Shown here one piece after another: positions 1 through 13,487 of a stretch of 64,000 bases of DNA. Each line of letters starts with the position of its first letter. The stretch's first letter is position 1. Position numbers and translations under genes: made by a program. The notes under the pieces are model-generated. The model made no database searches and was not told where the DNA came from. It worked only from the letters and a program-made list of their open reading frames with translations. The stretch is from Candidatus Poribacteria bacterium (GTDB lineage: Bacteria > Poribacteria > WGA-4E > PCPOR2b): assembly GCA_965208675.1 (NCBI GenBank), contig OZ242351.1, positions 3,584,001 to 3,648,000 of the forward strand, written 5' to 3'.

Positions 1-1
1 T

Positions 2-1318
2 GGTGTCTACGATCCATATCTCCATTATGTGGTATTTAATTCAGTCGTCAATGTGCTGACGGAACGCGCATCTAAAACCTTTCGATTCAAAGAGCAGGAG
101 CAGTTACACGAGGAGGTAATCGACACTGGGCTCGCAAAGATTTATCAGTCCCATTTAGAGGTGGCGCGTACAATCGCGAAAGAAGACCACAACTACGACC
201 TCAAGATTACGCTGCTTGACGGCAAAGCCTTTGAAAAAATCTTGCAATACACGCGTAAGACCCAACCGTGGCTGCTGGTGCTTGGTCGAATTGGCGTGCA
301 CAGCGAATCCGACATGGACATTGGCAGCAACACCGAAAATCTACTGCGGCTCGCCCCTTGCAACGTCCTGTTATCGAGCCAGCGATATGTCCCCAAGGTT
401 GATGTCAAGGCGGAAGAGACTGTCGTTTGGACGCAGGAAGCCTTAGACCGTATGGAGAAAGCGCCGCCGCTAATCAAAGGGATTGCCAGGACGGCAGTCC
501 ACCGCTTTGCGCTTGAGCGCGGGCACTCGGTCATTACCGAAAGCGTCATTGAGGGCGCTATGGAGACGTTTATGCCGGGGCGCTCTGCAGAACGGATGAC
601 GCGAGTCGCCAAAGAGGTCGCGGCGCAGACGGTTCTTGAGGCAAATGCTATCCAGACATACATCTGTGAAGATTGCGGCTATGCCGCCCGTGAACAGCAA
701 CCTGTGAAATGTCCGGTCTGCGGTGTCGGCAGCGACCGCTTCCAAATGGTTGATAAAGACTCGCTGCAGAAAATTGCGGCTCAAGAGGGCGGCGTCAGCG
801 AAGAACGTACCTTTGACGGCGTCCGCCTCCAGTGGTCGGATCAGGCAAAGAAGGCGTTGCGGAATGTGCCGCGCGGTTATATGCGGCGTAATGTCAAGGC
901 GCGAATCGAAAAATCGGCGCGGACGCAGAAAATCGACACTATCACGAATGAATTTGCCATGCTGATTGTCAACGAGAGCATCGATGACGCTTCCGCTATC
1001 CGAGAAGACGCGCCTGAACTAAGGGCTGTGTCTCAATCGCGCGGCAACGCCGACACCGCCCAAGGGGAGGCATTTGAAAGTCGGTTTGAATGGACAACAG
1101 ACGCCCGTGAGCGATTGAATCTCGTACCCGCAGGATTTATGAGGAACATCACGCAGTCTCGCGTCGAGCAGCGGGCACAGGAAGCCGACCTTGAAACAAT
1201 CAACCTCGATTTTGCGGCACAGGTAATTGAAGACGGACGGAGTCTGGCTAACGAGGTGCTTGGCAGCTATTATCAACAGGATGAACAGGCTAGCGAGGTA
1301 GGCGCACAGGCAAAATGA
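2..1318 (+). CDS. Universal stress protein with 3 PCP_red domains and a rubredoxin-like domain (5'-truncated by window)
   Basis: Frame open from nt 2. USP C-terminal motif LLVLGRIG..GSNTENLLRLAPCNVL; three W..A..R+..+P repeats (nt ~428, ~833, ~1091); YICEDCGY..CPVCG. Confidence 0.85.
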   Translation, partial: GVYDPYLHYVVFNSVVNVLTERASKTFRFKEQEQLHEEVIDTGLAKIYQSHLEVARTIAKEDHNYDLKITLLDGKAFEKILQYTRKTQPWLLVLGRIGVHSESDMDIGSNTENLLRLAPCNVLLSSQRYVPKVDVKAEETVVWTQEALDRMEKAPPLIKGIARTAVHRFALERGHSVITESVIEGAMETFMPGRSAERMTRVAKEVAAQTVLEANAIQTYICEDCGYAAREQQPVKCPVCGVGSDRFQMVDKDSLQKIAAQEGGVSEERTFDGVRLQWSDQAKKALRNVPRGYMRRNVKARIEKSARTQKIDTITNEFAMLIVNESIDDASAIREDAPELRAVSQSRGNADTAQGEAFESRFEWTTDARERLNLVPAGFMRNITQSRVEQRAQEADLETINLDFAAQVIEDGRSLANEVLGSYYQQDEQASEVGAQAK

Positions 1319-1482
1319 CTTAATTGGCTCAGAACGATCAAATGAGCGGAAAGTGAAGGGATGGTTTACTGCGAATCCCAACGCATTTGAAAACTTCGTC
1401 AATCCAAATACAAAAAACTGTCGCGATTACTATCTTGTCTCTAATTTGGCGGATTGTTTAGGAATTTGGGAGGCTTTATCCC

Positions 1483-2766
1483 ATGGGCTACGCGCGGAAA
1501 AAACAGTGGACAATTGTAATACTTTCCGTAATTTTGCTTTCGGCTGTGGGCGTTGCCGCAGCGGAAAACTGGCCGCATTGGCGCGGACCGCGCAACGATG
1601 GCACCAGTCTCGAAACCGGCCTCCCAATCCAATGGAGTAGCACTGAAAACGTCCTGTGGCGGCTTCCGCTTCCGGGCGCCGCCGGTGCAACACCGGTCGT
1701 GTGGGATGACCGCATCTTCCTGACTTCGGCAGAGAGCAGCGATCTGGTACTGTTGTGCATCGGAACAGATGGCGAGTTACTCTGGAAACGCACCTTGGGA
1801 ACCGGCAATCGCAACGTCCACGGCGGAGAGGGAAACGCCGCCTCCCCTTCCCCATCCACCGACGGCAAACATGTCTGGGCATTCATCAGCACTGGAGACT
1901 TAGCCTGTTATGACTTCGACGGCAACGAGGTCTGGAAGACTAATCTGGAAGACCGGTACGGCGGCTTCAATCTCTACTTCGTCATGGCATCCACTCCGCT
2001 CCTTGACGGTGACCGGCTTTATCTCCAGTTAATTCACAGCAATGCATGGCTCGTGCTGGCATTGGACAAATCGACCGGCCGTGAGATTTGGAAACACAAT
2101 CGTAAAAGCGATGCATACGCGGAGTGCGAACATTCTTACGCCTCCCCTTCGCTCTATCGAGACGATAAACGTGAATTCTTGCTCGTTCACGGTGCGGACT
2201 ACATCACCGCCCACCATCTCACGGACGGAAGCGAGATTTGGCGCTGCGGAAACCTTAATCCGAAGAATAGCTACAACACCTCCCTGCGGTTGGTTGCCTC
2301 CCCTGTAGCCGTTCCCGGTCTCGTCGTCGTTCCTTCCGCGAAGAATGGGCCGGTCATCGGCCTGCGTCCCGGCGGCAAGGGAGATATAACCGGCTCAATG
2401 CGATGGCAGCACTGGCGGCGAGCGGATGGCACGCCGGATGTTCCGTCTCCACTCATCCATGAAGGACTTGTCTATCTATGCCGGGAAAACGGCGATCTAA
2501 TTTGTTTGGACGCCGAAACCGGTAAGCAAGTGTACAAAGAGCGGACGCACCGTCACAGGCACCGTGCATCCCCCGTTTCCGGTGGCGGCAACATCTACTT
2601 GACTTCGAGGGACGGACGTGTAACCGTTGTAAAATCTGGGCGGAATTTTGAGATTCTTGCCTCCAACGACATTGAAGAGACGATCTCCGCGTCCCCCGTC
2701 ATCTCGAACGGCAAGTTCTATCTACGGAGCTACAAAGCGCTGTATGCCATCGGTGTTGCGGAGTGA
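1483..2766 (+). CDS. Secreted PQQ-like (BamB-type) beta-propeller protein
   Basis: Signal peptide then ENWPHWRGP; repeated W-containing blades; ASP motifs. Confidence 0.85.
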   Translation: MGYARKKQWTIVILSVILLSAVGVAAAENWPHWRGPRNDGTSLETGLPIQWSSTENVLWRLPLPGAAGATPVVWDDRIFLTSAESSDLVLLCIGTDGELLWKRTLGTGNRNVHGGEGNAASPSPSTDGKHVWAFISTGDLACYDFDGNEVWKTNLEDRYGGFNLYFVMASTPLLDGDRLYLQLIHSNAWLVLALDKSTGREIWKHNRKSDAYAECEHSYASPSLYRDDKREFLLVHGADYITAHHLTDGSEIWRCGNLNPKNSYNTSLRLVASPVAVPGLVVVPSAKNGPVIGLRPGGKGDITGSMRWQHWRRADGTPDVPSPLIHEGLVYLCRENGDLICLDAETGKQVYKERTHRHRHRASPVSGGGNIYLTSRDGRVTVVKSGRNFEILASNDIEETISASPVISNGKFYLRSYKALYAIGVAE

Positions 2767-2805
2767 ATTGCCAAGCACGGAGAATTGTGAAGTCGGGTGC
2801 CGCGC

Positions 2806-3723
2806 ATGAAAACCTACAAAGACCTACCCTCCGACGGCGGTTCTGATATCGTCGGGCAGGTGACTCAACAGGTCAACCGCCTGCAGAAACGGTTTGCATC
2901 GGTGCGTCATACCGTCGCTATCATGAGCGGAAAGGGCGGGGTAGGCAAGAGTTTGTTGACGGCAAATCTCGCTTCAGCGCTTAGATTGCGCGGATACGAT
3001 GTTGGGATAGTTGACGCTGATATCAATGGCCCGTCAATCGCCAAAATGACGGGAGTGCGGTCGGCAAAGATTAATTACGACGCTGCTGGTGTGAAACCCG
3101 CAGTGAGTCCATCGGGCGTCAAGGTGATGTCGATGGATCTGTTCCTCAAGAACGACGAATCCCCCGTGCTTTGGGAAGCCCAAACGCAGAAGGACGCTTA
3201 CACTTGGCGCGGGACGATGGAGGTGACGGCACTCCGCGAATTCCTATCTGATACCGAATGGGGCGCGCTTGACTATCTACTTATCGATCTGCCGCCCGGT
3301 TCGGACCGGCTGCCGAATCTCGCCGATTTGCTGCCGACGCTCGGCGGCGCCATCGTGGTCACCATTCCTTCCGGCGTCTCGCAGCTTGTGGTAAAGAAAT
3401 CGTTGACGATGGCAAAGGCAGCACTCAACATACCGGTGATTGGTATCGTCGAAAACATGAGCGCATACATCTGCGCCAGTTGCGGCAAGACGGAAGGCTT
3501 GTTCCCGACTGGGAATACGGAGGAGACGGCGCATCAATTCAACATTCCGTTACTCCCCAAAATTCCGTTCGATCCACGTCTTTCAATCGCCGCTGACGAC
3601 GGTGAGAACTTTTTAGAACAAAACGCCGAAACACCAGCCGCAAAGGCGATAATCGAAGTTGGCAATAAAATCGAGACGTTTTTTGAGAACAACACTGCAA
3701 GTGTGCCACGGAGCGACTCATGA
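2806..3723 (+). CDS. mrp: Mrp/ApbC/NBP35 family Fe-S cluster carrier ATPase
   Basis: SGKGGVGKS, DADINGPS, WGALDYLLIDLPPG, ENMS..CASC. Confidence 0.92.
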   Translation: MKTYKDLPSDGGSDIVGQVTQQVNRLQKRFASVRHTVAIMSGKGGVGKSLLTANLASALRLRGYDVGIVDADINGPSIAKMTGVRSAKINYDAAGVKPAVSPSGVKVMSMDLFLKNDESPVLWEAQTQKDAYTWRGTMEVTALREFLSDTEWGALDYLLIDLPPGSDRLPNLADLLPTLGGAIVVTIPSGVSQLVVKKSLTMAKAALNIPVIGIVENMSAYICASCGKTEGLFPTGNTEETAHQFNIPLLPKIPFDPRLSIAADDGENFLEQNAETPAAKAIIEVGNKIETFFENNTASVPRSDS

Positions 3724-4235
3724 AATTTCTATGCCTCGAATGCAACACGGCTATGCAGTTTAAGGAAGCCGCAAAGCCCGATCAAGGTTCATTAACGGCA
3801 ATTTTCGAGTGTCCGGACTGTTTTGCCGAGTTTGCAATGCACATGAACCCGTGGGAAACCCAAATGCTGAAGTCCCTCAACGTTCAGCTCGGCGGCAAAA
3901 GCGAAGCGGCGCAGCCGATGCAGATGGTACGCTCCTTTTTAAGCGAGCAAGGCGGCGCAACCGCCGCAACAGATCAGAACACGCAGACAACAACCATGAC
4001 GCCAGAGTCGGAAGGCGGCAAGTGTCCGTTTACATCAGTTGTCGCAGAAGCATTTCAAGAACCGGATTCGTCCGGACCGGTATGGACGCCGGAAGCCTTA
4101 GCGCGTTTGGAGCGTGTGCCTAGCTTCGTCCGTCCGATGGCAAAGACTAGCATTGAAGAGTTCGCACGTGAAAATGGGCACACCGAAATCACCACCGACA
4201 TCATGGATTCTGCACGCGGCAGTTTTGGGATGTAG
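3720..4235 (+). CDS. Zn-ribbon + PCP_red domain protein
   Basis: CLEC..CPDC; KCPF motif; C-terminal WTPEALARLERVPSFVR..IEEFARENG..EIT; ATGA overlap with mrp. Confidence 0.8.
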   Translation: MKFLCLECNTAMQFKEAAKPDQGSLTAIFECPDCFAEFAMHMNPWETQMLKSLNVQLGGKSEAAQPMQMVRSFLSEQGGATAATDQNTQTTTMTPESEGGKCPFTSVVAEAFQEPDSSGPVWTPEALARLERVPSFVRPMAKTSIEEFARENGHTEITTDIMDSARGSFGM

Positions 4236-4381
4236 GAGTATGTCGCAGCAATTACGGAAGAAATCTTCTTACACAAGTATTGGCAGACCAGTGTGAGGCG
4301 TTAATGTAGAACATTTCATTCTGCAGATTGTATTTACTTTTCTCGGCGGGACCGCTTCTATGTTTCACGGTACACTTATCC

Positions 4382-4879
4382 ATGCGCCAATTCGTCGAAC
4401 TTGTCATTCGTTGGATACACCTAATCGCCGCAATCGTCTGGTTCGGCAGCGTCTTTTTTTCAGTCAGCATCGCTACACCGGTATTGAGGAAGCATTTCCA
4501 AATCGTTGAAAGTGTCCGGCATACCGCCGAGATTCTGGAGCGCTTACGGCATATTATCCGTTTCACGATTCACGTGCTTCTAATCACCGGTGCGATGAAC
4601 GTGTTCATCGTTGGATTGAACACGCAGATGCGCTTTTCTCAGGACTACGGCTATTTTGTTGTTTTTATCGCGAAACTCGCTTTTGTTGGATTGATGACGC
4701 TGTTCCATAGCCTGCATATCGCCGTTTTCAACCGAAGATTGGAATCCGCGGCGGCAAACCCAGATTTTGACGCTTCAGAGGTCTCCAAACTCCAAAAGCG
4801 GGTGGACCTATTTGGAATTTTTACGATACTCACCGGGCTTGTTGTCTTTGCGTTATCGTTGCGTTTGAGAGTGGATTGA
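4382..4879 (+). CDS. 4-TM membrane protein, CopD/DUF4149-like
   Basis: RWIHLIAAIVWFG, LLITG, AKL..LH pattern; four hydrophobic helices. Confidence 0.7.
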   Translation: MRQFVELVIRWIHLIAAIVWFGSVFFSVSIATPVLRKHFQIVESVRHTAEILERLRHIIRFTIHVLLITGAMNVFIVGLNTQMRFSQDYGYFVVFIAKLAFVGLMTLFHSLHIAVFNRRLESAAANPDFDASEVSKLQKRVDLFGIFTILTGLVVFALSLRLRVD

Positions 4880-4916
4880 TAAACTAAGTGAAGCGTGTCA
4901 TTAGGGAAGTAAATAC

Positions 4917-6218
4917 ATGGAAACGAAAATCCAAGCCGTCTCATGGAATATCACACGGTTATGCAATCTCAAATGCACACACTGTTATCTCCCCGCCGGC
5001 TTTGTGGATACGAACGAGTTTCCAAACGGGTATTATCGAGACGCGGAACTGACGCAGCCCGAGTGTTTCCGCGTGATTGATGAGATTGCCGAGGTCAATC
5101 CCAACATCCTCCTGATACTCACGGGCGGCGAACCGTTGCTGCGCCCTGACATTTTGAAAATCTCGGATTATGCGGCTCAAACCGGATTCTTGGTAGTGAT
5201 GGGTACGAACGGCGTCCTGCTGAACGATGAAACGGTTCAGCGGATGAGCGATCACGGTGTTGCCGGCGCAGGCATCAGTTTGGATGCTGTGGACGCGGTT
5301 AATCACGACAAGTTCCGGGGGATGGAGGGCGCTTGGGAAGGCACGATGAACGGGGTCGAAGCCCTCAAGCGGGCAAACCTCGATTTCCTTGTGCAAACCT
5401 CTGTGACACAGTGGAATTACGATGAGATTCCGCAAATCGTTGATTTTGCCTATGAACTCGGCGCGAAAGTGTTCAACCTCTATTTCCTTGTGAGAACCGG
5501 CAGGGGGAAAACGGTGATGGATATCACACCGGCTCAATATGAACAGATGCTCTCGACGCTTTTTGAGATACAGTCGAAATACCGCGGCAAGATGTTGGTT
5601 GCAGCAAAATGCGCGCCGCACTACAAACGGGTCATTTATGAACAGCAATCAGATTCGCCCTTCCTGCAAGCCTATCCGAGCGGTACGTGTCCCTGCGGCA
5701 TCTATTACTGCCGGATCACGCCGGAAGGCGATTTGACACCGTGCCCCTACATGCCGGTGAGCGTCGGCAACCTGAAGACGGATAGTTTCCAGACGCTCTG
5801 GAACCAGTCGAAAGTCTTTCGCGAACTGCGAAATCGGGAACTGTTGGAAGGCAAGTGCGGCGCCTGCGAATTTCGAGACGTTTGCGGTGGTTGCCGCGCC
5901 CGCGCCTATGCCCAAACCGGTAACTATCTCGCTGAAGATGCGTCCTGCGAATACCAACCCGGACAGGTTGGCGGTCAAAACGTCCGGTTCGAAAAGACTA
6001 CCCCCTTTGCGGCCGAAACCGATTACGAGTTACAGTGGACGGATGCCGCACAGAAAAGATTGCAGCGTGTGCCCTCCTTTGCACGCGGGATGGTTACCAA
6101 AAGCGTCGAGAATTACGCCCGCGAACACGGTTGCCATGAAATTACACCGGAAATCATGAAAGCTGTCAAGAATCGATTTGACAAAACAGGTATCCCGTCG
6201 TTTAGACCTCGGCCGTAA
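4917..6218 (+). CDS. Radical SAM/SPASM protein (AhbD/NirJ-like) with C-terminal PCP_red domain
   Basis: CNLKCTHC, TGGEP, CAPHY, SPASM CPCG..PCPY..KCGAC..CGGCRARA; tail WTDAAQKRLQRVPSFAR. Confidence 0.88.
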   Translation: METKIQAVSWNITRLCNLKCTHCYLPAGFVDTNEFPNGYYRDAELTQPECFRVIDEIAEVNPNILLILTGGEPLLRPDILKISDYAAQTGFLVVMGTNGVLLNDETVQRMSDHGVAGAGISLDAVDAVNHDKFRGMEGAWEGTMNGVEALKRANLDFLVQTSVTQWNYDEIPQIVDFAYELGAKVFNLYFLVRTGRGKTVMDITPAQYEQMLSTLFEIQSKYRGKMLVAAKCAPHYKRVIYEQQSDSPFLQAYPSGTCPCGIYYCRITPEGDLTPCPYMPVSVGNLKTDSFQTLWNQSKVFRELRNRELLEGKCGACEFRDVCGGCRARAYAQTGNYLAEDASCEYQPGQVGGQNVRFEKTTPFAAETDYELQWTDAAQKRLQRVPSFARGMVTKSVENYAREHGCHEITPEIMKAVKNRFDKTGIPSFRPRP

Positions 6219-6279
6219 AACACGGTTAACGAAGGTAAATTTCGCGCATGACGCCCGCACACTTTGAGGAGAAAAAACT

Positions 6280-6693
6280 ATGAATAGTGAAAACCGAGTT
6301 GAAGACCGGCTATCCGCCGTTGAAGACCGATTAAACCGCTTGGAAGATTTGCTGGTCGGTATCAGTCAAAAACTGGATCAGAAACCCCAGCCGACTGCGA
6401 TTGATGAGGAGAAAGGCGAAGCGTTCAAAGAGTGGGTGACCGATTACGTTTCAATGCGCTTGCAGCAGCTTGTGCCCGAAACATGCGATCATCCGGATGC
6501 CACAAATTCGCACGAAGGTCCGTTCTTGGATAACACCTCAGTCCGCTGCACTGAGGAAGTTGTTCACCGCGTCAAACGCATCCCGATTCCATTTGTTCGG
6601 GAGATGGTGGTTCAACGTGTGGCGGAAAATGCCCGCCGTGCAGAGGTTGATGTGGTCGACGTGGAATTCTTTGAGAGTGCGGCGACCTTTTGA
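6280..6693 (+). CDS. Coiled-coil + divergent PCP_red domain protein
   Basis: GAGGA RBS; heptad N-terminus; C-terminal TEEVVHRVKRIPIPFVREMV..VAENAR. Confidence 0.72.
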   Translation: MNSENRVEDRLSAVEDRLNRLEDLLVGISQKLDQKPQPTAIDEEKGEAFKEWVTDYVSMRLQQLVPETCDHPDATNSHEGPFLDNTSVRCTEEVVHRVKRIPIPFVREMVVQRVAENARRAEVDVVDVEFFESAATF

Positions 6694-7169
6694 CAGTGCA
6701 AAGCCACGGAGGAGTTTCCTCTGCCGCATTTCCACTGGGAGGATTTTTTAACGACTCCGCTCTGAACCAAGATTCAAAAGTCTTCAATCTAAAAATGGAT
6801 TGGGTGTTTAATCTTTTCTCAGAGTATCTTGAGAACGATTTCAAGAAGCGGCTAGGCATTCCCAAGCCGACAGTGGACCAGCTTTGGGACGCCTTCAAAG
6901 TCATGTTCCCGGCGACTTCGGCGCGACTCCTGGTGCAAGAGCCGGTTGGGAACACGGTCCGATTCAAACCGCTCGCCTTTTATTATGCGGACGAAATGGG
7001 ACCGCTGATTGAAGATGCGATGGGCTATATCAAGCAAAATTTCGGCGGGGGCAAATTCAAAATCAATTTCTACCAAGGGATGCAGTTCATTGCAACAATC
7101 AACTTTAAGCCCGAAGGCCCCGAAATTTGGCGCGATTTGCCGGAACTTGATGGGGCGGGGGTATCATGA
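6690..7169 (+). CDS. Hypothetical protein (start may be ATG ~6795)
   Basis: Overlaps both neighbours by 4 nt; protein-like composition. Confidence 0.65.
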   Translation: MTVQSHGGVSSAAFPLGGFFNDSALNQDSKVFNLKMDWVFNLFSEYLENDFKKRLGIPKPTVDQLWDAFKVMFPATSARLLVQEPVGNTVRFKPLAFYYADEMGPLIEDAMGYIKQNFGGGKFKINFYQGMQFIATINFKPEGPEIWRDLPELDGAGVS

Positions 7170-7588
7170 CACTTCAGCAGACCGTTACGGTATGCCCCGC
7201 GTGCAACAGCAAAAACGTGGAAGCCGTCGACCAAAATTCGTCGTTCTGCCTCGATTGCGATTGGGACAATTTACCGTTCGTCTCGAAAAGAACTGACGCA
7301 CTGATTTCTGCACTGCGGCACGGCGGTCCGGAGGCGCGGCGGGAAGCGGCGCAGACGCTAATCAATATCGGCGATGCGAACCGGCACGTCGCAACGCCCG
7401 ACGACCTCAATCCCCTGCTCGAAGCCCTTGATGATACAGATGACGATGTCCGCTATTTTGCTGCCGTGGCGCTGGGAAAGCTTCGGGATACGCGTGCACT
7501 GGCAAGGCTTGAGCGCATCGTGCATAACGACCCCTCTGGACTCGTGCGCGAAGGCGCCAAAAGCGCAATCGAATGGATTGAAGATTGA
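7166..7588 (+). CDS. Zn-ribbon + HEAT/PBS-lyase repeat protein
   Basis: CPAC..CLDC; LLEALDDTDDDVRYFAAVALG. Confidence 0.8.
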   Translation: MTLQQTVTVCPACNSKNVEAVDQNSSFCLDCDWDNLPFVSKRTDALISALRHGGPEARREAAQTLINIGDANRHVATPDDLNPLLEALDDTDDDVRYFAAVALGKLRDTRALARLERIVHNDPSGLVREGAKSAIEWIED

Positions 7589-7648
7589 TTCGGCGGCTTA
7601 TGCCCTACTTCAGTACCAACCTCAAAATCCTGCGTCAAAATAGTCCTT

Positions 7649-8068
7649 GTGATTGCCATTTCTAACCTACCCATGATAAATGCCGCGCTCAACTCAATTA
7701 GCGCGGCTCTGCTGACTGCCGGATATTTGATGGTTCGGAGACGCAGGATTGAAGCCCATAGAAAGTGCATGATTGCGGCTTTCGCGGTCTCCGCGCTATT
7801 TCTTACCAGTTATCTCGTCTACCACTACCACGCCGGATCCAAGAATTTTACCCTGTACGGCTGGATTCGCCCGGTTTACTTTACGATTCTCATCTCCCAT
7901 ATTATCCTCGCCGCGCTTATCCTCCCGCTCGCCTTAAGAACCCTCTACCTTGCCTGGCGCAAACAGTTTGCTAAACACCGCCGTATCGCGCGTCTGACGC
8001 TACCGTTGTGGCTATATGTTTCTGTCACCGGTGTAATCATCTATTTCATGCTATACCATCTCCAATGA
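7649..8068 (+). CDS. DUF420 membrane protein (often cytochrome oxidase-associated)
   Basis: LPMINAALN, HRKCM, FLTSYLVYH, HIILAA, HRRIAR..LWLYVSVTG. Confidence 0.9.
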   Translation: MIAISNLPMINAALNSISAALLTAGYLMVRRRRIEAHRKCMIAAFAVSALFLTSYLVYHYHAGSKNFTLYGWIRPVYFTILISHIILAALILPLALRTLYLAWRKQFAKHRRIARLTLPLWLYVSVTGVIIYFMLYHLQ

Positions 8069-8142
8069 TGGGTTGGTATGCTGCCGATATTCAGCAGCAA
8101 TTTGGTTTGAAATTGCCGAGGGCGGTGTAGTATACTGTCTGT

Positions 8143-8260
8143 TATAGTCATTGCGACTAAAAATCATACATTTACTCATTGGTTTGTAGGAGAGGCTTCC
8201 TAGCCTCGATTATTAATCAGTCAATTACTCCTTGTGTAAATATGAACCGAATTGACTATA
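8143..8260. mobile_element. MITE-like element, TATAGTCA...TGACTATA termini
   Basis: Inverted termini; internal sequence recurs at 47083-47220, 51605-51669 and partly 23344-23387. Confidence 0.7.
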
Positions 8261-8318
8261 AAGCCAAACCCTGTCCCGAATTAGCGCAATCTTAAAAACG
8301 AGTAAGGTAAATCAACAC

Positions 8319-9074
8319 ATGCGTCCCCAGAGTTCAACGCAGACAGAAAAAAGAGCACAATCCCCGGATACTTTAGACCTATCTGAAATTGGTGCATCCA
8401 AAGATGGCGTACCTCAAGTCAGTGAACGGCGGTTGTTTGTGCAACTTCAGGTGTTCGATGGGTGTGTTCAACCGCAAGAACTGGTTGCAGCTTTAGAAGG
8501 CAGCGGTCTGGAGTGTGTCCTGTATCAAGATGTGCACGATTCGTCCGGCGTGGGGCTGCTCTATATGACGGAAAACCCTAACGATCTGGTGACCGAACTC
8601 GGGATCCTACTAAGGCGGGGTCCGTTTGCATCGTTGCGTCGAAAACCTGAATTTACCATGATTGGCAGGACATATTCTTCCGGACGCGAACCAAATTTAG
8701 AAGAATGGCTGCTCCGCAAGCCGCGCCGGAACATGCTGAACCCAGAATTTTCATGGGCGATGTGGTATCCGCTCCGACGGAAACCCGAGTTTTATCTGCT
8801 TCCAAGATCGGATCAGGGCAAGATTCTAGGCGAACACGCCATGATTGGCCGAGCCTACGCACAAGCGGGACATGCGCAGGATATCCGTCTGGCGTGTTTC
8901 GGACTCGATCCGCATGATAATGAGTTTGTGATTGGATTAGTAGGACCAGAGCTGTACCCGCTTTCTCGGCTTGTGCAAGACATGAGGAAAACTCAGCAAA
9001 CCGCCAAATACATCGACTCGCTTGGGCCATTTTTTGTGGGCAAAGTCTGCTGGCAAAAACCGTTGGCGTTGTGA
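8319..9074 (+). CDS. Chlorite dismutase-family protein, probably coproheme decarboxylase (ChdC/HemQ)
   Basis: WYPLRRKPEFY..EHAMIG..GLDPHDNEF..GPFFVG; no signal peptide. Confidence 0.8.
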   Translation: MRPQSSTQTEKRAQSPDTLDLSEIGASKDGVPQVSERRLFVQLQVFDGCVQPQELVAALEGSGLECVLYQDVHDSSGVGLLYMTENPNDLVTELGILLRRGPFASLRRKPEFTMIGRTYSSGREPNLEEWLLRKPRRNMLNPEFSWAMWYPLRRKPEFYLLPRSDQGKILGEHAMIGRAYAQAGHAQDIRLACFGLDPHDNEFVIGLVGPELYPLSRLVQDMRKTQQTAKYIDSLGPFFVGKVCWQKPLAL

Positions 9075-9240
9075 GATTAGAAGCGAAGTGCGTGAAACCA
9101 CGCGTCGGTTCGCCGAGCGATTTCTAATCGCATCGACAATGAGTGCCGTGAAATACCGGCGTCTCGAACCGTTTGGCGGCCATGCCTCCATTCCAGTTGG
9201 CCTCCGGCTTTTGATAATTTTCCAAACTCAAAGGCACATT

Positions 9241-9966
9241 ATGAAGAACATCGCTGCAATTGCGTTGAAAGAGTTGTACACCTATTTTGTTTCACCGGTA
9301 GCTTACTTTGTGTTCTTTATCTTCACGGCGGTCTCTGGCGTTTTCTTTATTTTCATCTTTTACCATGTGTTTCGTTCCCAAATGCCAATCGACGAAGTTA
9401 TGGGGAGTTTATTCCCGACTATGAGCGTTATTCTCCTCTTCTTCACGCCCGCCCTGACCATGAAACTCTTCGCGGAAGAGCGGAAAAGCGGAACCATTGA
9501 ACTGATGTCGACTTCGCCCGTGAGAGACTCGGAGATGGTGTTCGGAAAGTTTTTGGCAAGTTTGGTGCTGACGCTATTCATGTTGGTGCTGACGCTGCTG
9601 TTTCCAATCCTCATTGCCGCATTCGGCGAAATCGATACGGGCAAAATCGCCAGCGGGTATTTCGGTCTTATCCTGCTGGCATCCACATTTCTCGCGCTCG
9701 GTCTCCTCATCTCCTCAATGAGCAAGAATCAAATTGTCGCGGCGTTGACCAGTTTCGGGATTCTGTTAGCCCTCTGGATAATTGGTTTTCTATCAAATTT
9801 TGCGGGACAGTTAGGTGGATTTTTGGCGTATTTCTCGCTCAGTGAGCATTCCCAGGGCTTCGCGCGCGGGGTGGTCGGCGTCAAACATGTTGTATATTTT
9901 CTGAGTTTCACAACCGTCTGCCTGTTCGCGACTGTTAAATCCGTAGAATCATCAAAATGGAGGTAA
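9241..9966 (+). CDS. ABC-2 permease, GldF-like
   Basis: KELYTYFVSPVAY, LTMKLFAEERKSGTIEL, SKNQIVA. Confidence 0.88.
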   Translation: MKNIAAIALKELYTYFVSPVAYFVFFIFTAVSGVFFIFIFYHVFRSQMPIDEVMGSLFPTMSVILLFFTPALTMKLFAEERKSGTIELMSTSPVRDSEMVFGKFLASLVLTLFMLVLTLLFPILIAAFGEIDTGKIASGYFGLILLASTFLALGLLISSMSKNQIVAALTSFGILLALWIIGFLSNFAGQLGGFLAYFSLSEHSQGFARGVVGVKHVVYFLSFTTVCLFATVKSVESSKWR

Positions 9967-9969
9967 TCC

Positions 9970-11634
9970 TTGATGCCAGTTGAACCGAGCGGACTCCCAA
10001 ATCACGAACCGGTGAATGGCGCAAACACCCAAACGAGCGACAAGCTGGGACCGCTGTTCGGCTTTTTCAGCCTCATTTTTCTATTCGCAACACTCGTTAT
10101 CCTGTTTCTCTCCAATAACCGTACATCCACTGTCTTCTGGATCTCCCTCGTGCTTGGAATCGCTGCATTTAGCGTTTTCGCTGCCAAGCGTTTTCAGGCA
10201 ATATTGCACTTCTTTGTTAGCCGCCAAGCCCGCTACGGTGCAAACGTCGCAATTAGCATACTGGCAACCCTTGGAATTGCAATCATCCTAAATGTTGTCG
10301 TTGCTCAACGATTCGATAAGGCTGCCGATTGGACAGCCGATAAAACCTTCACCCTATCGGATCAGACGAAGAACATCCTGCACGGATTGGACCGCGAGGT
10401 TAAGGTGATAGCCTTTTTCAGTAACTCTCCAAACAATCCACGGTCGCAACAGCAATATGGACTCGCTAAAGATATGTTGGAAAGGTACAAGCGAGAAACG
10501 GACAAACTCACGGTTGAATTCGTTGATCCCTACGCAGATCCGCTGAAGAAAGAGGAGCATGGTGTTCGACTCGATGAAACAACCGTCTTTGAGAGCAGCG
10601 GTGAACGGGAGCGGGTAACAGCCGTTGATGAACAAATGTATACAAGCGCAATCATGAAGGTGGTTCGCGACGAGATTAAGACAATCTACTTTCTGACAGG
10701 CCATGAAGAGCAGTCAATTGACGACTTTGAGCAGGGCGGCTATTCCCAAGCCAAAGAGGAATTAGAGACGCAGAACTATCTTGTTAAAACACTGGTTTTG
10801 ACAACCGAGCCGCAAGTCCCCGCCGATTGCGCGCTGCTCGTTATTCCCGGTCCAATATCGCCGCTCGCATTACACGAGATTAACGCGATTTCAAAATACC
10901 TAGATAATAACGGCAAATTACTTGTCATGTTTGAACCTTCGATAACACGATCGGAAGATCCGAATTGGAACCTGGTTCGCTTAATGGACCGATGGGGAAT
11001 TTCGGTTGGCAATAACCTCGTGGTAGATTTATCCGATTTCCTGTTTATTGGCGGCATTACTGCACCCGCTGTCACTAGATTTGAATTCCATCAGATAGTG
11101 CGCCACATGCGTCAACCTGTTTCGTTTTTGACCGCCCGTTCCGTGGCGCCAAAGGAAGGCGCAAGACCACAACTCAACGCCAAATCGCTCGCCAAGACGA
11201 CGGATGCGGTTGGCGATAGTTGGGGGGAAACTGCGCGGAAAGAAGACGGCACTTTCGCCGATCCTGAATACACACCGAACGAGGATGCGCCGCCGCCGGT
11301 CTCGCTCGCTGCCGCGGTCGAATTGATGAACGATGAGGAAATATCCGTCGATGAACCAAAGAAAACGAACACTCGTATCGTTGCTGTAGGCGACGCCGAC
11401 TTCGCCTCAAATTTCTTATTTGAAAGAACCGGCGGCGGCGATCTATTTCTGAATGCGGTGAACTGGCTCACGCAGGAAGAAGACCTGATTGCCATCCGCC
11501 CGAGAGACCCAAACGAGCGAACCCTGCGCTTTATGACACCCGGCGAATTTGCATTCGTGCAGATTGCATCAATTTTTCTTATCCCCTTAATTATCTTCTT
11601 TGTCGGGTTGGTCGTCTGGTGGCGGCGGCGGTAG
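9970..11634 (+). CDS. GldG-family ABC transporter auxiliary component
   Basis: DWT..FTLSDQT, IYFLTGHEE, VGDADF, LFLNAVNWL, C-terminal TM + WWRRR. Confidence 0.88.
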   Translation: MMPVEPSGLPNHEPVNGANTQTSDKLGPLFGFFSLIFLFATLVILFLSNNRTSTVFWISLVLGIAAFSVFAAKRFQAILHFFVSRQARYGANVAISILATLGIAIILNVVVAQRFDKAADWTADKTFTLSDQTKNILHGLDREVKVIAFFSNSPNNPRSQQQYGLAKDMLERYKRETDKLTVEFVDPYADPLKKEEHGVRLDETTVFESSGERERVTAVDEQMYTSAIMKVVRDEIKTIYFLTGHEEQSIDDFEQGGYSQAKEELETQNYLVKTLVLTTEPQVPADCALLVIPGPISPLALHEINAISKYLDNNGKLLVMFEPSITRSEDPNWNLVRLMDRWGISVGNNLVVDLSDFLFIGGITAPAVTRFEFHQIVRHMRQPVSFLTARSVAPKEGARPQLNAKSLAKTTDAVGDSWGETARKEDGTFADPEYTPNEDAPPPVSLAAAVELMNDEEISVDEPKKTNTRIVAVGDADFASNFLFERTGGGDLFLNAVNWLTQEEDLIAIRPRDPNERTLRFMTPGEFAFVQIASIFLIPLIIFFVGLVVWWRRR

Positions 11635-11711
11635 CGCAATAAATGCAGTCTGAACCGCGCCGCGCTGGAAACGTCAAACGTTTTCAGATTGGACTGAGAT
11701 GAGACAAACTC

Positions 11712-13487
11712 ATGAACTTCAAAACTACGCTGATAATACTCCTAATATTCATCGTCTTTGGCGGGTCGTACCTGCTGTTTTTTCAGGACAAACCTGCTGA
11801 TGATTCGGACGCCGACCAACCGAAAATCGGCGACGCCTACGCACTGGCCAAAGACGACATCCGTCGAGTGCGCATCTCATTCAACGATACCGCCTATGCC
11901 CCGCTTTCACTTACAAAAGACGTTGACAGCGCTTGGCAGTTAACAGAACCAATTGCCGCAGACGCGCAGGGCGCAAAGATTAACGAGATGCTTGGCGACC
12001 TGCTAAACAAGAAAATCAAGCGCACCCTTGAAGTGGCCACGCTGACGGAGTACGAACTCGATCCGCCCAAGATACAGATTCAACTCTGGACGACAGGCGA
12101 ATCGCCCGCAAAGACCTTTCTCATCGGCAAGAGGACAGTCAACTACTCCGTCTACGCAAAGGAGGGATCCGAGCCTCACATCTTCCTAATCGAATCGAGC
12201 GCGCTCGAAGATTTCACGAAATCGGCGTCAGATTTCCGGGATCGATCGGCTTTAAAATTCGATGCGGAAGAAGTTACAGGGTTGACACTGCGGGTCATGG
12301 ACGAGAGTGCGATTCGTTGCCATAAGCGTGAGTCGAACCTCTGGCAGATGGACGAACCTGTGGAGGCAGCGGCGGACGCCAAAGAGATCGAGTCAATCCT
12401 GACGGCGCTCAACGCCTTGAAGGTCGTCGTTTTTGCGGAGGATGGCGCGGAGGATGTCACCCCGTATGGACTCGATACGCCGCGAATCCAAGTCCGCCTC
12501 GACCTATCAGACGGCGACACTCAGACGCTGCTAATCGGCGGCGACGATAAGGCAACCGGCCGCATCTACACAAAAAGTGCGGACCTCGACGCAGTCTACG
12601 CTGTCAACAGCGAAATTTACGCCAGTCTCAATAAGTCTGTTTTCGATCTCCGAAGCAAGCGCGTTATCGACTTCCAGCGAACCGCGGCAATCCGATTTGA
12701 GATTGAACGGCAAGGCAAAAAAAAGGTTGTTTGCGAGAAAAACAGCGGCGGCGAATGGGAAATCAGTGCGCCGGTTGTGTTGAAAGCGGATGCATCCGCA
12801 GTCGACGATCTGCTGTTCGGCGTTGATTCGCTGAAGGCGGTCGAATTTGCCGCCGATTCGCCCAAAAACCTTCAACCGTACGGACTAGATGCCCCGTCAA
12901 TCAAAGTTTTATTCACAACGACCGGCGAGGATTCAGTTGCTCTCCTTATCGGGAATTTAAAGGGTGAGACTGTCTACGTAAAATCTCAAAACGCCGAACC
13001 TGTCTACGGGGTGAAGAAAAATCTCATTGACCTCGTTGGGGTGGGAGTCGCATCGTTGCGCGACAAACAGATTCTCGACTTCGACAGCGATTCCGCGGTT
13101 AAGCTCACGCTTCGGCATGGCGATGCCAACTTAACCTGCCAGAAACAGGGGACGAACTGGCGGCTGATTCATCCGGTGCAGGAGGATGCAAAAAATGGAA
13201 CCGTCAACACTATCCTTTATCAGATTGGCGAGCTGAAAGTCGAGGAGTTTTTGGCGGATACGCCCGATGCAGCCAGTACCGGCTTGGATGCGCCTGCAAT
13301 TCAGGTCAACGTCACGTTGAAGGATGGAACCGAGCATGTGCTGCAAATCGGCAAACCTGCAGAATCCGAACACCTCCACGCCCGGGTGTGGCGTTTGCCG
13401 GACACAGTTTTTTTGCTCAGATCGGATATCGCCGAAACGCTCAAGAAAACAGTGGAGGATTTCCGAGCGATTCCCGATGAGGCTTAA
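11712..13487 (+). CDS. DUF4340 repeat protein
   Basis: N-terminal anchor; three repeats with W...P..A and YGLD.P motifs. Confidence 0.85.
   Translation: MNFKTTLIILLIFIVFGGSYLLFFQDKPADDSDADQPKIGDAYALAKDDIRRVRISFNDTAYAPLSLTKDVDSAWQLTEPIAADAQGAKINEMLGDLLNKKIKRTLEVATLTEYELDPPKIQIQLWTTGESPAKTFLIGKRTVNYSVYAKEGSEPHIFLIESSALEDFTKSASDFRDRSALKFDAEEVTGLTLRVMDESAIRCHKRESNLWQMDEPVEAAADAKEIESILTALNALKVVVFAEDGAEDVTPYGLDTPRIQVRLDLSDGDTQTLLIGGDDKATGRIYTKSADLDAVYAVNSEIYASLNKSVFDLRSKRVIDFQRTAAIRFEIERQGKKKVVCEKNSGGEWEISAPVVLKADASAVDDLLFGVDSLKAVEFAADSPKNLQPYGLDAPSIKVLFTTTGEDSVALLIGNLKGETVYVKSQNAEPVYGVKKNLIDLVGVGVASLRDKQILDFDSDSAVKLTLRHGDANLTCQKQGTNWRLIHPVQEDAKNGTVNTILYQIGELKVEEFLADTPDAASTGLDAPAIQVNVTLKDGTEHVLQIGKPAESEHLHARVWRLPDTVFLLRSDIAETLKKTVEDFRAIPDEA

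Follow-up and report, generated by a model that had tools for sequence, protein, structure and literature searches.

PCP_red and PCP_red-like domains recur on four proteins of a conserved AhbD/NirJ-type radical SAM gene cluster in sponge-associated Poribacteria

The PCP_red domain (PF08369) is known as the C-terminal domain of BchB/ChlB, the B subunit of dark protochlorophyllide reductase (DPOR). In the PDB, eight distinct sequences of the DPOR B subunit match it, and there is a lead that it is ordered in the 2YNM complex. No functional description of PCP_red, of PF08369 or of the PCP reductase family was found in the literature, supplementary tables not covered, and, two structure papers aside, the accessible parts of the DPOR literature hold no statement on the role of the BchB C-terminal domain. 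The radical S-adenosylmethionine (SAM) enzyme AhbD occurs in some organisms of the coproporphyrin pathway without other Ahb enzymes, as stated in the accessible part of a recent review (2026 heme-biosynthesis review). Among the papers listed for AhbD together with Poribacteria, Nitrospira, anammox bacteria or Nitrospina, none was about AhbD. Here, we describe a gene cluster in which PCP_red is combined with an AhbD/NirJ2-like radical SAM enzyme. It occupies the first ∼9 kb of a 64,000-nucleotide stretch of DNA (the window; contig OZ242351.1 of assembly GCA_965208675.1, positions 3,584,001 to 3,648,000), to which all coordinates without a prefix refer. A preliminary description, made from the letters alone, had proposed that six PCP_red domains on four proteins act here as a shared docking tag, and knew of no functional account of such a system; the literature has yielded none either.

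The evidence supports a single conserved functional unit, set in a heme context, of the four PCP_red proteins, an Mrp-type ATPase and the radical SAM enzyme. The enzyme itself is a putative radical SAM heme enzyme of the AhbD/NirJ type with a fixed, hitherto undescribed set of partners. The source is a Candidatus Poribacteria genome of 4.89 Mb on one contig (96.4% completeness). Matching DNA records are mainly sponge metagenomes, and the host is a sponge-associated bacterium; the closest loci in a collection of species genomes are from Poribacteria, and named homologues are annotated as ‘PCP reductase family protein’ of Candidatus Poribacteria. Positions 1..9100 hold eleven genes, all on the plus strand. 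Eight of them form the module: USP3P, Mrp, ZnP, the CopD/HemJ-like gene, the radical SAM gene (rSAMP), ccP and the genes for a 124-amino-acid (124-aa) protein and a Zn-ribbon-HEAT protein. Upstream of the window lie CoxB, CoxA, CtaA (heme A synthase), CtaB (heme O synthase), CoxC, CoxC, CoxD and Sco, followed directly by USP3P, which places the module between the genes for aa3 oxidase, heme O and heme A on one side and a DUF420 and a ChdC-like gene on the other.

The radical SAM enzyme rSAMP (4917..6218) consists of a Radical_SAM (80.9 bits), a SPASM (39.4 bits) and a C-terminal PCP_red domain (6036..6170; 57.4 bits). It matched AhbD (TIGR04545) with 331.4 bits (E 7e-99), residues 8-348 covering profile positions 2-339 of 339, and NirJ2 (TIGR04055) with 307.7 bits. 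Its CxxxCxxC and SPASM cysteines are invariant or nearly so in alignments, and it is the sole AhbD-like gene in the genome. The predicted structure reached a mean predicted local distance difference test (pLDDT) of 92.9 and a predicted template modelling score (pTM) of 0.90, with values of 87-98 in the PCP_red part and 91 at the start of the linker, a hint that this PCP_red may pack on the enzyme's own core. Its fold was nearest to the SPASM enzymes PqqE, SkfB, CteB, SuiB and anSME; no AhbD structure was among the structural matches listed for the model. Among 17 homologues, neither the length nor the sequence of the linker before PCP_red is constant, as expected of a tether.

A six-frame search of the whole 4.89-Mb genome found PCP_red in this cluster exclusively: six per-domain matches (71.1, 61.6, 41.7, 39.2, 34.6 and 22.5 bits) lie inside ∼6.3 kb, and there was no seventh. 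Five of them reach the Pfam gathering cut-off of 32.5 bits. Three of the copies are on USP3P (428..556, 41.7 bits; 833..952, 39.2 bits; and 1091..1213, 34.6 bits), the part of which inside the window scored 98.1 bits in total for its three PCP_red stretches in the Pfam search. One forms the C-terminus of ZnP (4083..4217, 68.6 bits), and one is that of rSAMP. The remaining copy, at the C-terminus of the coiled-coil protein ccP (6280..6693; domain at 6553..6681), is divergent and misses the cut-off with 20.8 bits (E 4e-4) by hmmscan and 22.5 bits in the six-frame search. It aligns in register with the other five, and a profile-profile comparison (hhalign) of ccP orthologues with the ZnP alignment gave a probability of 29.6% and an E value of 5.7e-4 over 39 columns in register. 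By its sequence, the ccP C-terminus is thus a probable, divergent relative of PCP_red rather than a proven member. The count of six domains on four proteins put forward in the preliminary description therefore stands for five, and weakly for the sixth. Across all six copies, one Pro and one Ala are the only invariant residues; His, Cys, Met or Tyr are not conserved. In ccP itself, C69, H71, C90 and H96 are invariant in 16 orthologues and form a possible metal site, C90 taking the position of the conserved Trp of other PCP_red copies.

That the motif is the PCP_red domain of BchB/ChlB, as had been recognized from the letters, was borne out by the PF08369 search and also by fold. The comparison with solved PCP_red domains was made with the predicted model of the ZnP copy, in which a pLDDT of ∼83 for the PCP_red part contrasts with 53.4 overall. 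The part comprises a short strand, two helices, a short strand and a third helix. ZnP residues 117-171 matched 2KRU with Z 9.4 and a root mean square deviation (rmsd) of 1.7 Å over 55 aligned residues, 2L09 with Z 7.0, and chain D of 2YNM (residues 479-528) with Z 7.0 and an rmsd of 1.2 Å. Residues 116-171 of the model also superpose on the lid domains of AAA+ proteins (RuvB, Z 7.1; RuvBL1/2, Z ∼6), a range that counts as a common arrangement. The absence of bchL, bchN and bchB, observed before for the window, was extended to the genome, which has no match to PF00148 (Oxidored_nitro).

A tree of 57 columns and 41 domain segments, taken from seven lineages, left many forks unresolved. In it, USP3P copy 1 fell into a cross-phylum clade of 4 rows (support 97/86) and copy 2 into one of 5 rows (99/96), and copy 3 joined the second and third copies from other phyla (10 rows, 98/95). 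The ‘APxFVRPGI’ type likewise formed a cross-phylum clade (98/90), and the divergent ccP copy paired with domain 3 of a Nitrospina protein (90/86). Because these position-specific clades are well supported across phyla, the copies do not look like one shared, interchangeable tag; judged by their sequences, they fall into position-specific types conserved across phyla. Of the docking idea of the preliminary description, the conserved unit in a heme context was retained, and the single shared tag was not.

The unit is widespread in the order to which the source genome belongs. PCP_red was found in 35 of 41 genomes of the order, the source included (six matches in 31, five in 2 and seven in 2), and the other 6 had no match. 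The gene order cox, USP3P, (PQQ), Mrp, ZnP, CopD, radical SAM, ccP, 124-aa, Zn-HEAT is kept in 19 loci of 16 genomes from three families. In two genomes, the cluster is split into three pieces, namely, cox-Sco-USP3P, Mrp-ZnP, and CopD-radical SAM-ccP with what follows. None of the four genomes of family f4 that were searched has an AhbD-like gene (E ≤ 1e-10), with CoxA and the ChdC-like gene present, and the ChdC-like gene was found in all five of the PCP_red-less genomes examined. A 9.1-Mb relative (G004, C10:36000-55000) has kept remnants: 49 aa of USP3P, residues 4-136 of Mrp and, with a break, residues 1-229 of the radical SAM enzyme. ZnP, CopD, ccP, the 124-aa protein and Zn-HEAT were not found at that locus, and CoxC/D, DUF420 and the ChdC-like gene on its flanks are intact. 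As the module is lost or truncated there while its neighbors are kept, it behaves as one unit; its decay beside an intact ChdC-like gene also indicates that it is dispensable where that gene remains. By the same token, the DUF420 and ChdC-like genes lie outside the module since they are intact where it is lost or decayed.

The same relative, which lacks any PCP_red match, encodes a second CoxA (58% identical) and, ∼14 kb off, another AhbD-like radical SAM protein (35% identical, 393-aa frame; C16:62833-63867 and C16:77720-79207), which may be a replacement enzyme.

Beyond Poribacteria, a search with rSAMP among 1.84 billion representative proteins gave 42,549 matches (E ≤ 0.001), and many of the best, at 40-51% identity, span the PCP_red end. 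Ten long homologues contained 1, 1, 1, 1, 2, 2, 3, 3, 4 and 4 PCP_red stretches. In the Atlas, radical SAM-PCP_red fusions are mainly from Methylomirabilota, Nitrospinota and Acidobacteriota. Scanning species genomes with the enzyme yielded 80 loci, 15 from Poribacteria and 65 from others, including Nitrospirota, Nitrospinota, anammox Planctomycetota, Vicinamibacterales and Methylomirabilota, as well as records labeled Delta-, Zeta- and Gammaproteobacteria. A USP3P-like protein (at least 400 aa aligned) adjoins the enzyme in 38 of the 65 non-Poribacteria loci, a pairing seen in Nitrospirota, Acidobacteriota and Methylomirabilota, among others. A CopD-like gene directly adjoins the radical SAM gene in 15/15 Poribacteria loci and is beside it in 15/65 of the others; CtaB is beside it in one (L109). 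In each of five genomes from other phyla, 5-12 PCP_red matches are distributed over several proteins. Together with the 31 of 41 genomes carrying six matches and the joint loss, the pairing of USP3P with the enzyme in other phyla and the fusions described below support the conserved co-occurrence on which the preliminary description had depended.

The fusions connect PCP_red with further steps of tetrapyrrole metabolism. A Nitrospina protein of 321 aa (L118:7082-8047) combines PCP_red (42.4 bits) with Chlor_dismutase (194 bits); its nearest NCBIfam model is HemQ_actino (135 bits, under the cut-off). Both Pfam families occur in 119 of the best 120 homologues listed, all named ones are from Nitrospinota, and the sources annotate the fusion as ‘chlorite dismutase’. 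In the domain tree, the PCP_red of this ChdC-like protein grouped with that of the Nitrospina radical SAM enzyme itself (98/91), on a long branch (1.81). As two unrelated enzymes that could catalyze the same step bear one PCP_red type in a single organism, the domain may connect an enzyme to a common partner, scaffold or substrate. ChdC enzymes are not known to contain an Fe-S cluster, which weakens the emphasis on Fe-S delivery in the preliminary description. In Brocadia, a 295-aa protein with PCP_red, NIR_SIR and two ferredoxin-type motifs is encoded directly upstream of AhbA-like (138.3 bits, cut-off 140) and AhbB (203.4 bits, cut-off 125) genes (L120:4965-6872, minus strand), a row that links PCP_red to the siroheme-dependent heme route. 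All enzyme fusion partners of PCP_red that were seen bind a tetrapyrrole or sit in a tetrapyrrole pathway.

Mrp (2797..3723) is a P-loop Fe-S carrier ATPase of the Mrp/NBP35/ApbC type. The features of such carriers, a NUBPL-type P-loop domain (PF10609, 249.8 bits) and a conserved CxxC, are both present: 17 orthologues share, without exception, the GKGGVGKS P-loop and C226/C229. Both equivalog cut-offs of NCBIfam were missed (MrpORP, 254.7 bits, cut-off 450; ApbC, 176.5 bits, cut-off 348), and faint matches to the BchL, BchX and NifH models were seen. The genome encodes a second Mrp paralogue, 34% identical. The stop codon of Mrp overlaps the start of ZnP (3720..4235) by 4 bases, and the adjacency of the two genes is kept where the cluster is split and also in Nitrospina, where Mrp (49% identical) adjoins a full-length ZnP orthologue on a contig other than that of the enzyme. 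ZnP is built of a four-Cys Zn-ribbon, a conserved middle part and the C-terminal PCP_red. C5, C8, C31, C34 and C102 are invariant in 17 orthologues, that is, four ribbon cysteines and the cysteine of an equally invariant GGKCPF (Cys-Pro) motif ahead of PCP_red. The Phe/Val-Gly-Met end of ZnP recurs in Nitrospina, Nitrospira, Vicinamibacterales and one ‘Deltaproteobacteria’ record. The ribbon of ZnP resembles that of NrdR (Z ∼5).

USP3P starts 647 bases upstream of the window, which contains the 3′ two thirds (2..1318) of the 654-aa protein (full frame, L007 11354..13318). Its order of domains is Usp, Usp, PCP_red, rubredoxin-like knuckles, PCP_red, PCP_red. The preliminary description had put it forward as a candidate stress-sensing scaffold. 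The Usp match (PF00582) in the partial protein (38.8 bits) passed the cut-off of 24, and the orthologues have two Usp domains. The rubredoxin-like CxxC...CxxC knuckles (659..742; PF21349 RUBY_RBDX, 29.2 bits) correspond to residues 220-247 of the partial protein, with CxxC at 438 and 453 in the numbering of the full one. Across three families of the order, orthologues share 77-92% identity, and one from Nitrospira has the same architecture of two Usp domains, three PCP_red domains and a rubredoxin-like domain. A word-based search for longer PCP_red proteins found six, all of them Usp plus PCP_red, by a method too insensitive for a survey of architectures.

The CopD/HemJ-like integral membrane protein (4328..4879) matched PF05425 with 32.9 bits (cut-off 32.1) and HemJ (TIGR00701) with E 0.0019; its true start may be near 4382 because the orthologues align from residue 19. 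The 124-aa protein (6795..7169) belongs to no known family, having neither a Pfam nor an NCBIfam match. The 159-aa open reading frame (ORF) starting at 6690 is probably over-extended: most orthologues align from residue 34-36 of it and three from residue 1 or 16. Among orthologues aligned over most of their length, identity is 75-90% across three families of the order. The Zn-ribbon/HEAT protein (7166..7588; HEAT_2, 56.3 bits) weakly resembles the phycocyanobilin lyase CpcF (30.4 bits; cut-off 220), and its gene travels with the radical SAM sub-module. The PQQ-like β-propeller with a hydrophobic N-terminal leader (1483..2766; PF13360, 93 bits) is encoded in only some of the orthologous loci and has eight paralogues in the genome; it is probably a variable insertion outside the module.

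Downstream of the module follow the DUF420 membrane protein (7649..8068; PF04238, 155.3 bits) and the ChdC-like protein of the chlorite dismutase family (8319..9074; PF06778, 62.4 bits, cut-off 25). The latter aligns with the ChdC structures 1VDH and 5LOQ, and its Tyr-Pro and His align with 5LOQ at what we take to be the catalytic Tyr and proximal His of Listeria ChdC. Against the HemQ equivalog models it scored 45.1 and 43 bits, with cut-offs of 235 and 253. Next come an ABC-2 permease, a GldG-like ABC_transp_aux protein and a DUF4340 protein (9235..13487), in a succession that several families of the order share. Preceding the oxidase operon (L007 1..3250) are genes for a protein with an EB_dh/DOMON-like end and a CarboxypepD_reg-domain protein, and two more ORFs (326 and 272 aa) that, judged by eye, resemble an ATP-binding cassette (ABC) ATPase and permease. 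A scan of 1..9300 for promoters and terminators returned 4 and 8 sites against 7.7 and 11.2 expected, nothing above chance.

Elsewhere in the source genome, hemE, hemH and hemY are clustered (C1:2135627-2142746). AhbB siroheme decarboxylase (NF040707) had no match in this genome at E ≤ 1e-10, and one AhbD-like and one Cld-family gene are present, both in the cluster described here. This layout fits a coproporphyrin-dependent pathway. A xylose-isomerase-like TIM-barrel gene and an unassigned ORF break up the hemE-hemH-hemY cluster (L028/L030, G000:C1:2134127-2144246), which is followed by a gene for a multiheme cytochrome c.

On the domains found, their conservation, joint loss and fusions and the heme context, all of which are observed, we infer a reaction, a direction of electron flow and a role of PCP_red as a contact surface. 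The reading that we favor, with a probability of about 0.45 and hence short of even odds, is an accessory O2-independent late branch of heme synthesis with PCP_red as position-specific docking modules. rSAMP would act as an AhbD-type coproheme decarboxylase in a coproporphyrin-dependent pathway, alongside the ChdC-like enzyme. Mrp would serve as the module's own Fe-S carrier, and the rubredoxin-like and Zn-ribbon knuckles as small metal-binding redox partners. The CopD/HemJ-like protein would be the membrane partner and could be a membrane electron sink, and the tethered PCP_red domains would join the partners to the enzyme. In favor of an AhbD-type reaction are the end-to-end alignment with AhbD, the pathway context, the neighborhood of oxidase and heme O/A genes and the PCP_red type shared with the ChdC-like protein. 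In a Vicinamibacterales genome, of which the assembly may be incomplete, neither a Cld-family gene nor AhbB was found, and the rSAMP-type enzyme may be its sole candidate for a coproheme decarboxylase.

Several observations weigh against this reading. rSAMP is under the AhbD equivalog cut-off of 500 bits, and its relatives in four other phyla, at 311-335 bits, are all under it too; scores in this range in five lineages mark the type as a subfamily in its own right. Cld-family proteins occur together with it in Poribacteria, Nitrospina and Nitrospira. In Brocadia, a near-canonical AhbD (G042:C81:20545-21567; 498.3 bits against the cut-off of 500) and AhbA/B accompany the PCP_red-bearing type (334.6 bits, 755-aa frame, three PCP_red); therefore, simple aerobic/anaerobic redundancy cannot explain the presence of the latter. 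Mrp and ZnP are beside the enzyme in only 3/65 non-Poribacteria loci each, a count that is to be read with many of these loci being on short contigs. Finally, the preliminary description had suggested modeling each domain with its partners, of which one complex was predicted, two copies of Mrp with full-length ZnP. With user-supplied alignments and a set-up unlike that of the calibration, it gave a median interaction prediction score from aligned errors (ipSAE) of 0.51, the best of three controls reaching 0.15. At least 48% of the contacts agreed between runs and the partner pLDDT was at least 60, and no interface was reported. Of 80 solved complexes, 58 pass the mark of the tool, as do 2 of 110 mismatched pairs; with values up to 0.60, only 7 of the 80 do so, along with both mismatches. 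The prediction thus lends weak support to the idea that Mrp may bind ZnP.

The cluster can be explained in other ways. PCP_red might be a tetrapyrrole-binding hand-over domain, with successive proteins passing on coproheme or heme and BchB passing on protochlorophyllide or chlorophyllide. This would account for the catalytic fusion partners all being linked to tetrapyrroles (BchB, the AhbD-like radical SAM enzyme, the ChdC-like protein and the NIR_SIR/ferredoxin protein upstream of AhbA/AhbB). Relay domains, such as the NEAT domains that pass on heme and the HMA domains that pass on copper, typically come in tandem on one chain and with one fold across several proteins of their pathway, and the invariant Cys-Pro motif of ZnP is like the heme-regulatory CP motif. 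A three-helix domain of 45-55 residues is, however, small for a porphyrin pocket, the six copies share no candidate His, Cys, Met or Tyr ligand, and the Usp and Zn-ribbon carriers have no known link to tetrapyrroles, so that we consider this explanation unlikely. We are equally doubtful of the view that rSAMP does not make heme b at all and carries out another O2-independent change of a tetrapyrrole, for example to a side chain as in NirJ, for the respiratory enzymes, with PCP_red still as an assembly module. The score below the AhbD cut-off, the near-equal closeness of NirJ2 (331 versus 308 bits), the oxidase and heme O/A genes adjoining here (CtaB in locus L109) and the second candidate coproheme decarboxylase found wherever one was sought, the Vicinamibacterales genome excepted, speak for it. 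That excepted genome, its possibly incomplete assembly notwithstanding, is also a point against it, as are the end-to-end alignment of the AhbD profile and the finding that the Nitrospina ChdC-like protein bears a PCP_red of the radical SAM type, in keeping with one step being served by two enzymes.

Still less probable, in our judgment, is that PCP_red docks on the dimer of a P-loop Fe-S ATPase (Mrp here, BchL/ChlL in DPOR) to receive clusters or ATP-driven electrons in a nitrogenase-like two-component system for a radical SAM enzyme. In both Mrp and BchL, which are of one P-loop class, the cluster lies at the dimer interface, and Mrp faintly matched BchL, BchX and NifH. The overlap of the Mrp and ZnP genes and the persistence of the pair in split clusters and in Nitrospina would suit such docking. 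However, the ChdC-like fusion is not known to have an Fe-S cluster to receive, Mrp is rarely beside the enzyme outside Poribacteria, and none was found in the 16 kb around the Nitrospira ZnP-like gene. Among the structural matches listed, 2YNM, a complex with the L protein, is the only DPOR entry, with PCP_red matched at residues 479-528, which speaks for docking; the falling of other DPOR structures outside those matches is no proof that PCP_red is disordered in them. A wider idea, that PCP_red is an ancient plug of tetrapyrrole pathways coupling alternative terminal enzymes (AhbD-like, ChdC-like, BchB) to a P-loop Fe-S ATPase and adaptors, is a long shot: Mrp, ZnP and USP3P would provide an ATP-dependent, nitrogenase-style delivery of clusters or electrons to a radical SAM heme enzyme that keeps an O2-sensitive heme route in aerobes such as Poribacteria, Nitrospira and Nitrospina. 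The idea that PCP_red acts in trans as the BchB helix that caps the pigment pocket was dropped because the functional BchB residues given in the accessible part of the source (404, 408 and 426) lie well ahead of PCP_red, which in the 525-residue chain takes up 473-518.

Annotation is the sole basis on which the last steps of heme synthesis have been inferred in the nitrite oxidizers Nitrospira and Nitrospina, in anammox bacteria, Methylomirabilota and Acidobacteriota, and in sponge symbionts. A separate AhbD-like subfamily with fixed partners would leave that annotation incomplete in part. The orphan domain PCP_red gains a testable context outside photosynthesis, which may in turn explain its role in DPOR. 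Being small and soluble, the proteins of the Mrp-ZnP pair and the enzyme lend themselves to direct binding and activity assays.

In comparison with described systems, rSAMP resembles AhbD and NirJ2 in having Radical_SAM and SPASM domains and in aligning with the whole AhbD profile. It differs in its score under 500 bits, in its C-terminal PCP_red (up to four in other lineages), in forming a subfamily of its own by its scores in five lineages, in occurring next to a near-canonical AhbD in the Brocadia genome, and in coming with a fixed set of partner proteins; to our knowledge, no such partners accompany the characterized AhbD enzymes. The best NCBIfam match of Mrp, MrpORP, shares the NUBPL-type P-loop domain and the invariant CxxC. 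As the match covers positions 2-251 of a 365-position profile, Mrp is without the C-terminal part of MrpORP, and unlike the latter, which belongs to the orange-protein complex of Desulfovibrio, it is paired with a Zn-ribbon-PCP_red protein. The gene at 8319..9074 is of the same family as ChdC/HemQ, a family fused to PCP_red in Nitrospinota, but is far under the HemQ equivalog cut-offs (45 versus 235 bits). With BchB/ChlB, the five copies share the Pfam family and the modeled ZnP copy the small helical fold, and in both cases the domain is tethered by a linker to an Fe-S enzyme acting on a tetrapyrrole. Here, however, PCP_red is repeated and found on four unrelated proteins of an organism that is no phototroph, and in contrast to DPOR subunit B, the Oxidored_nitro core is absent, the BchB equivalog models matching with their last ∼55-90 positions only.

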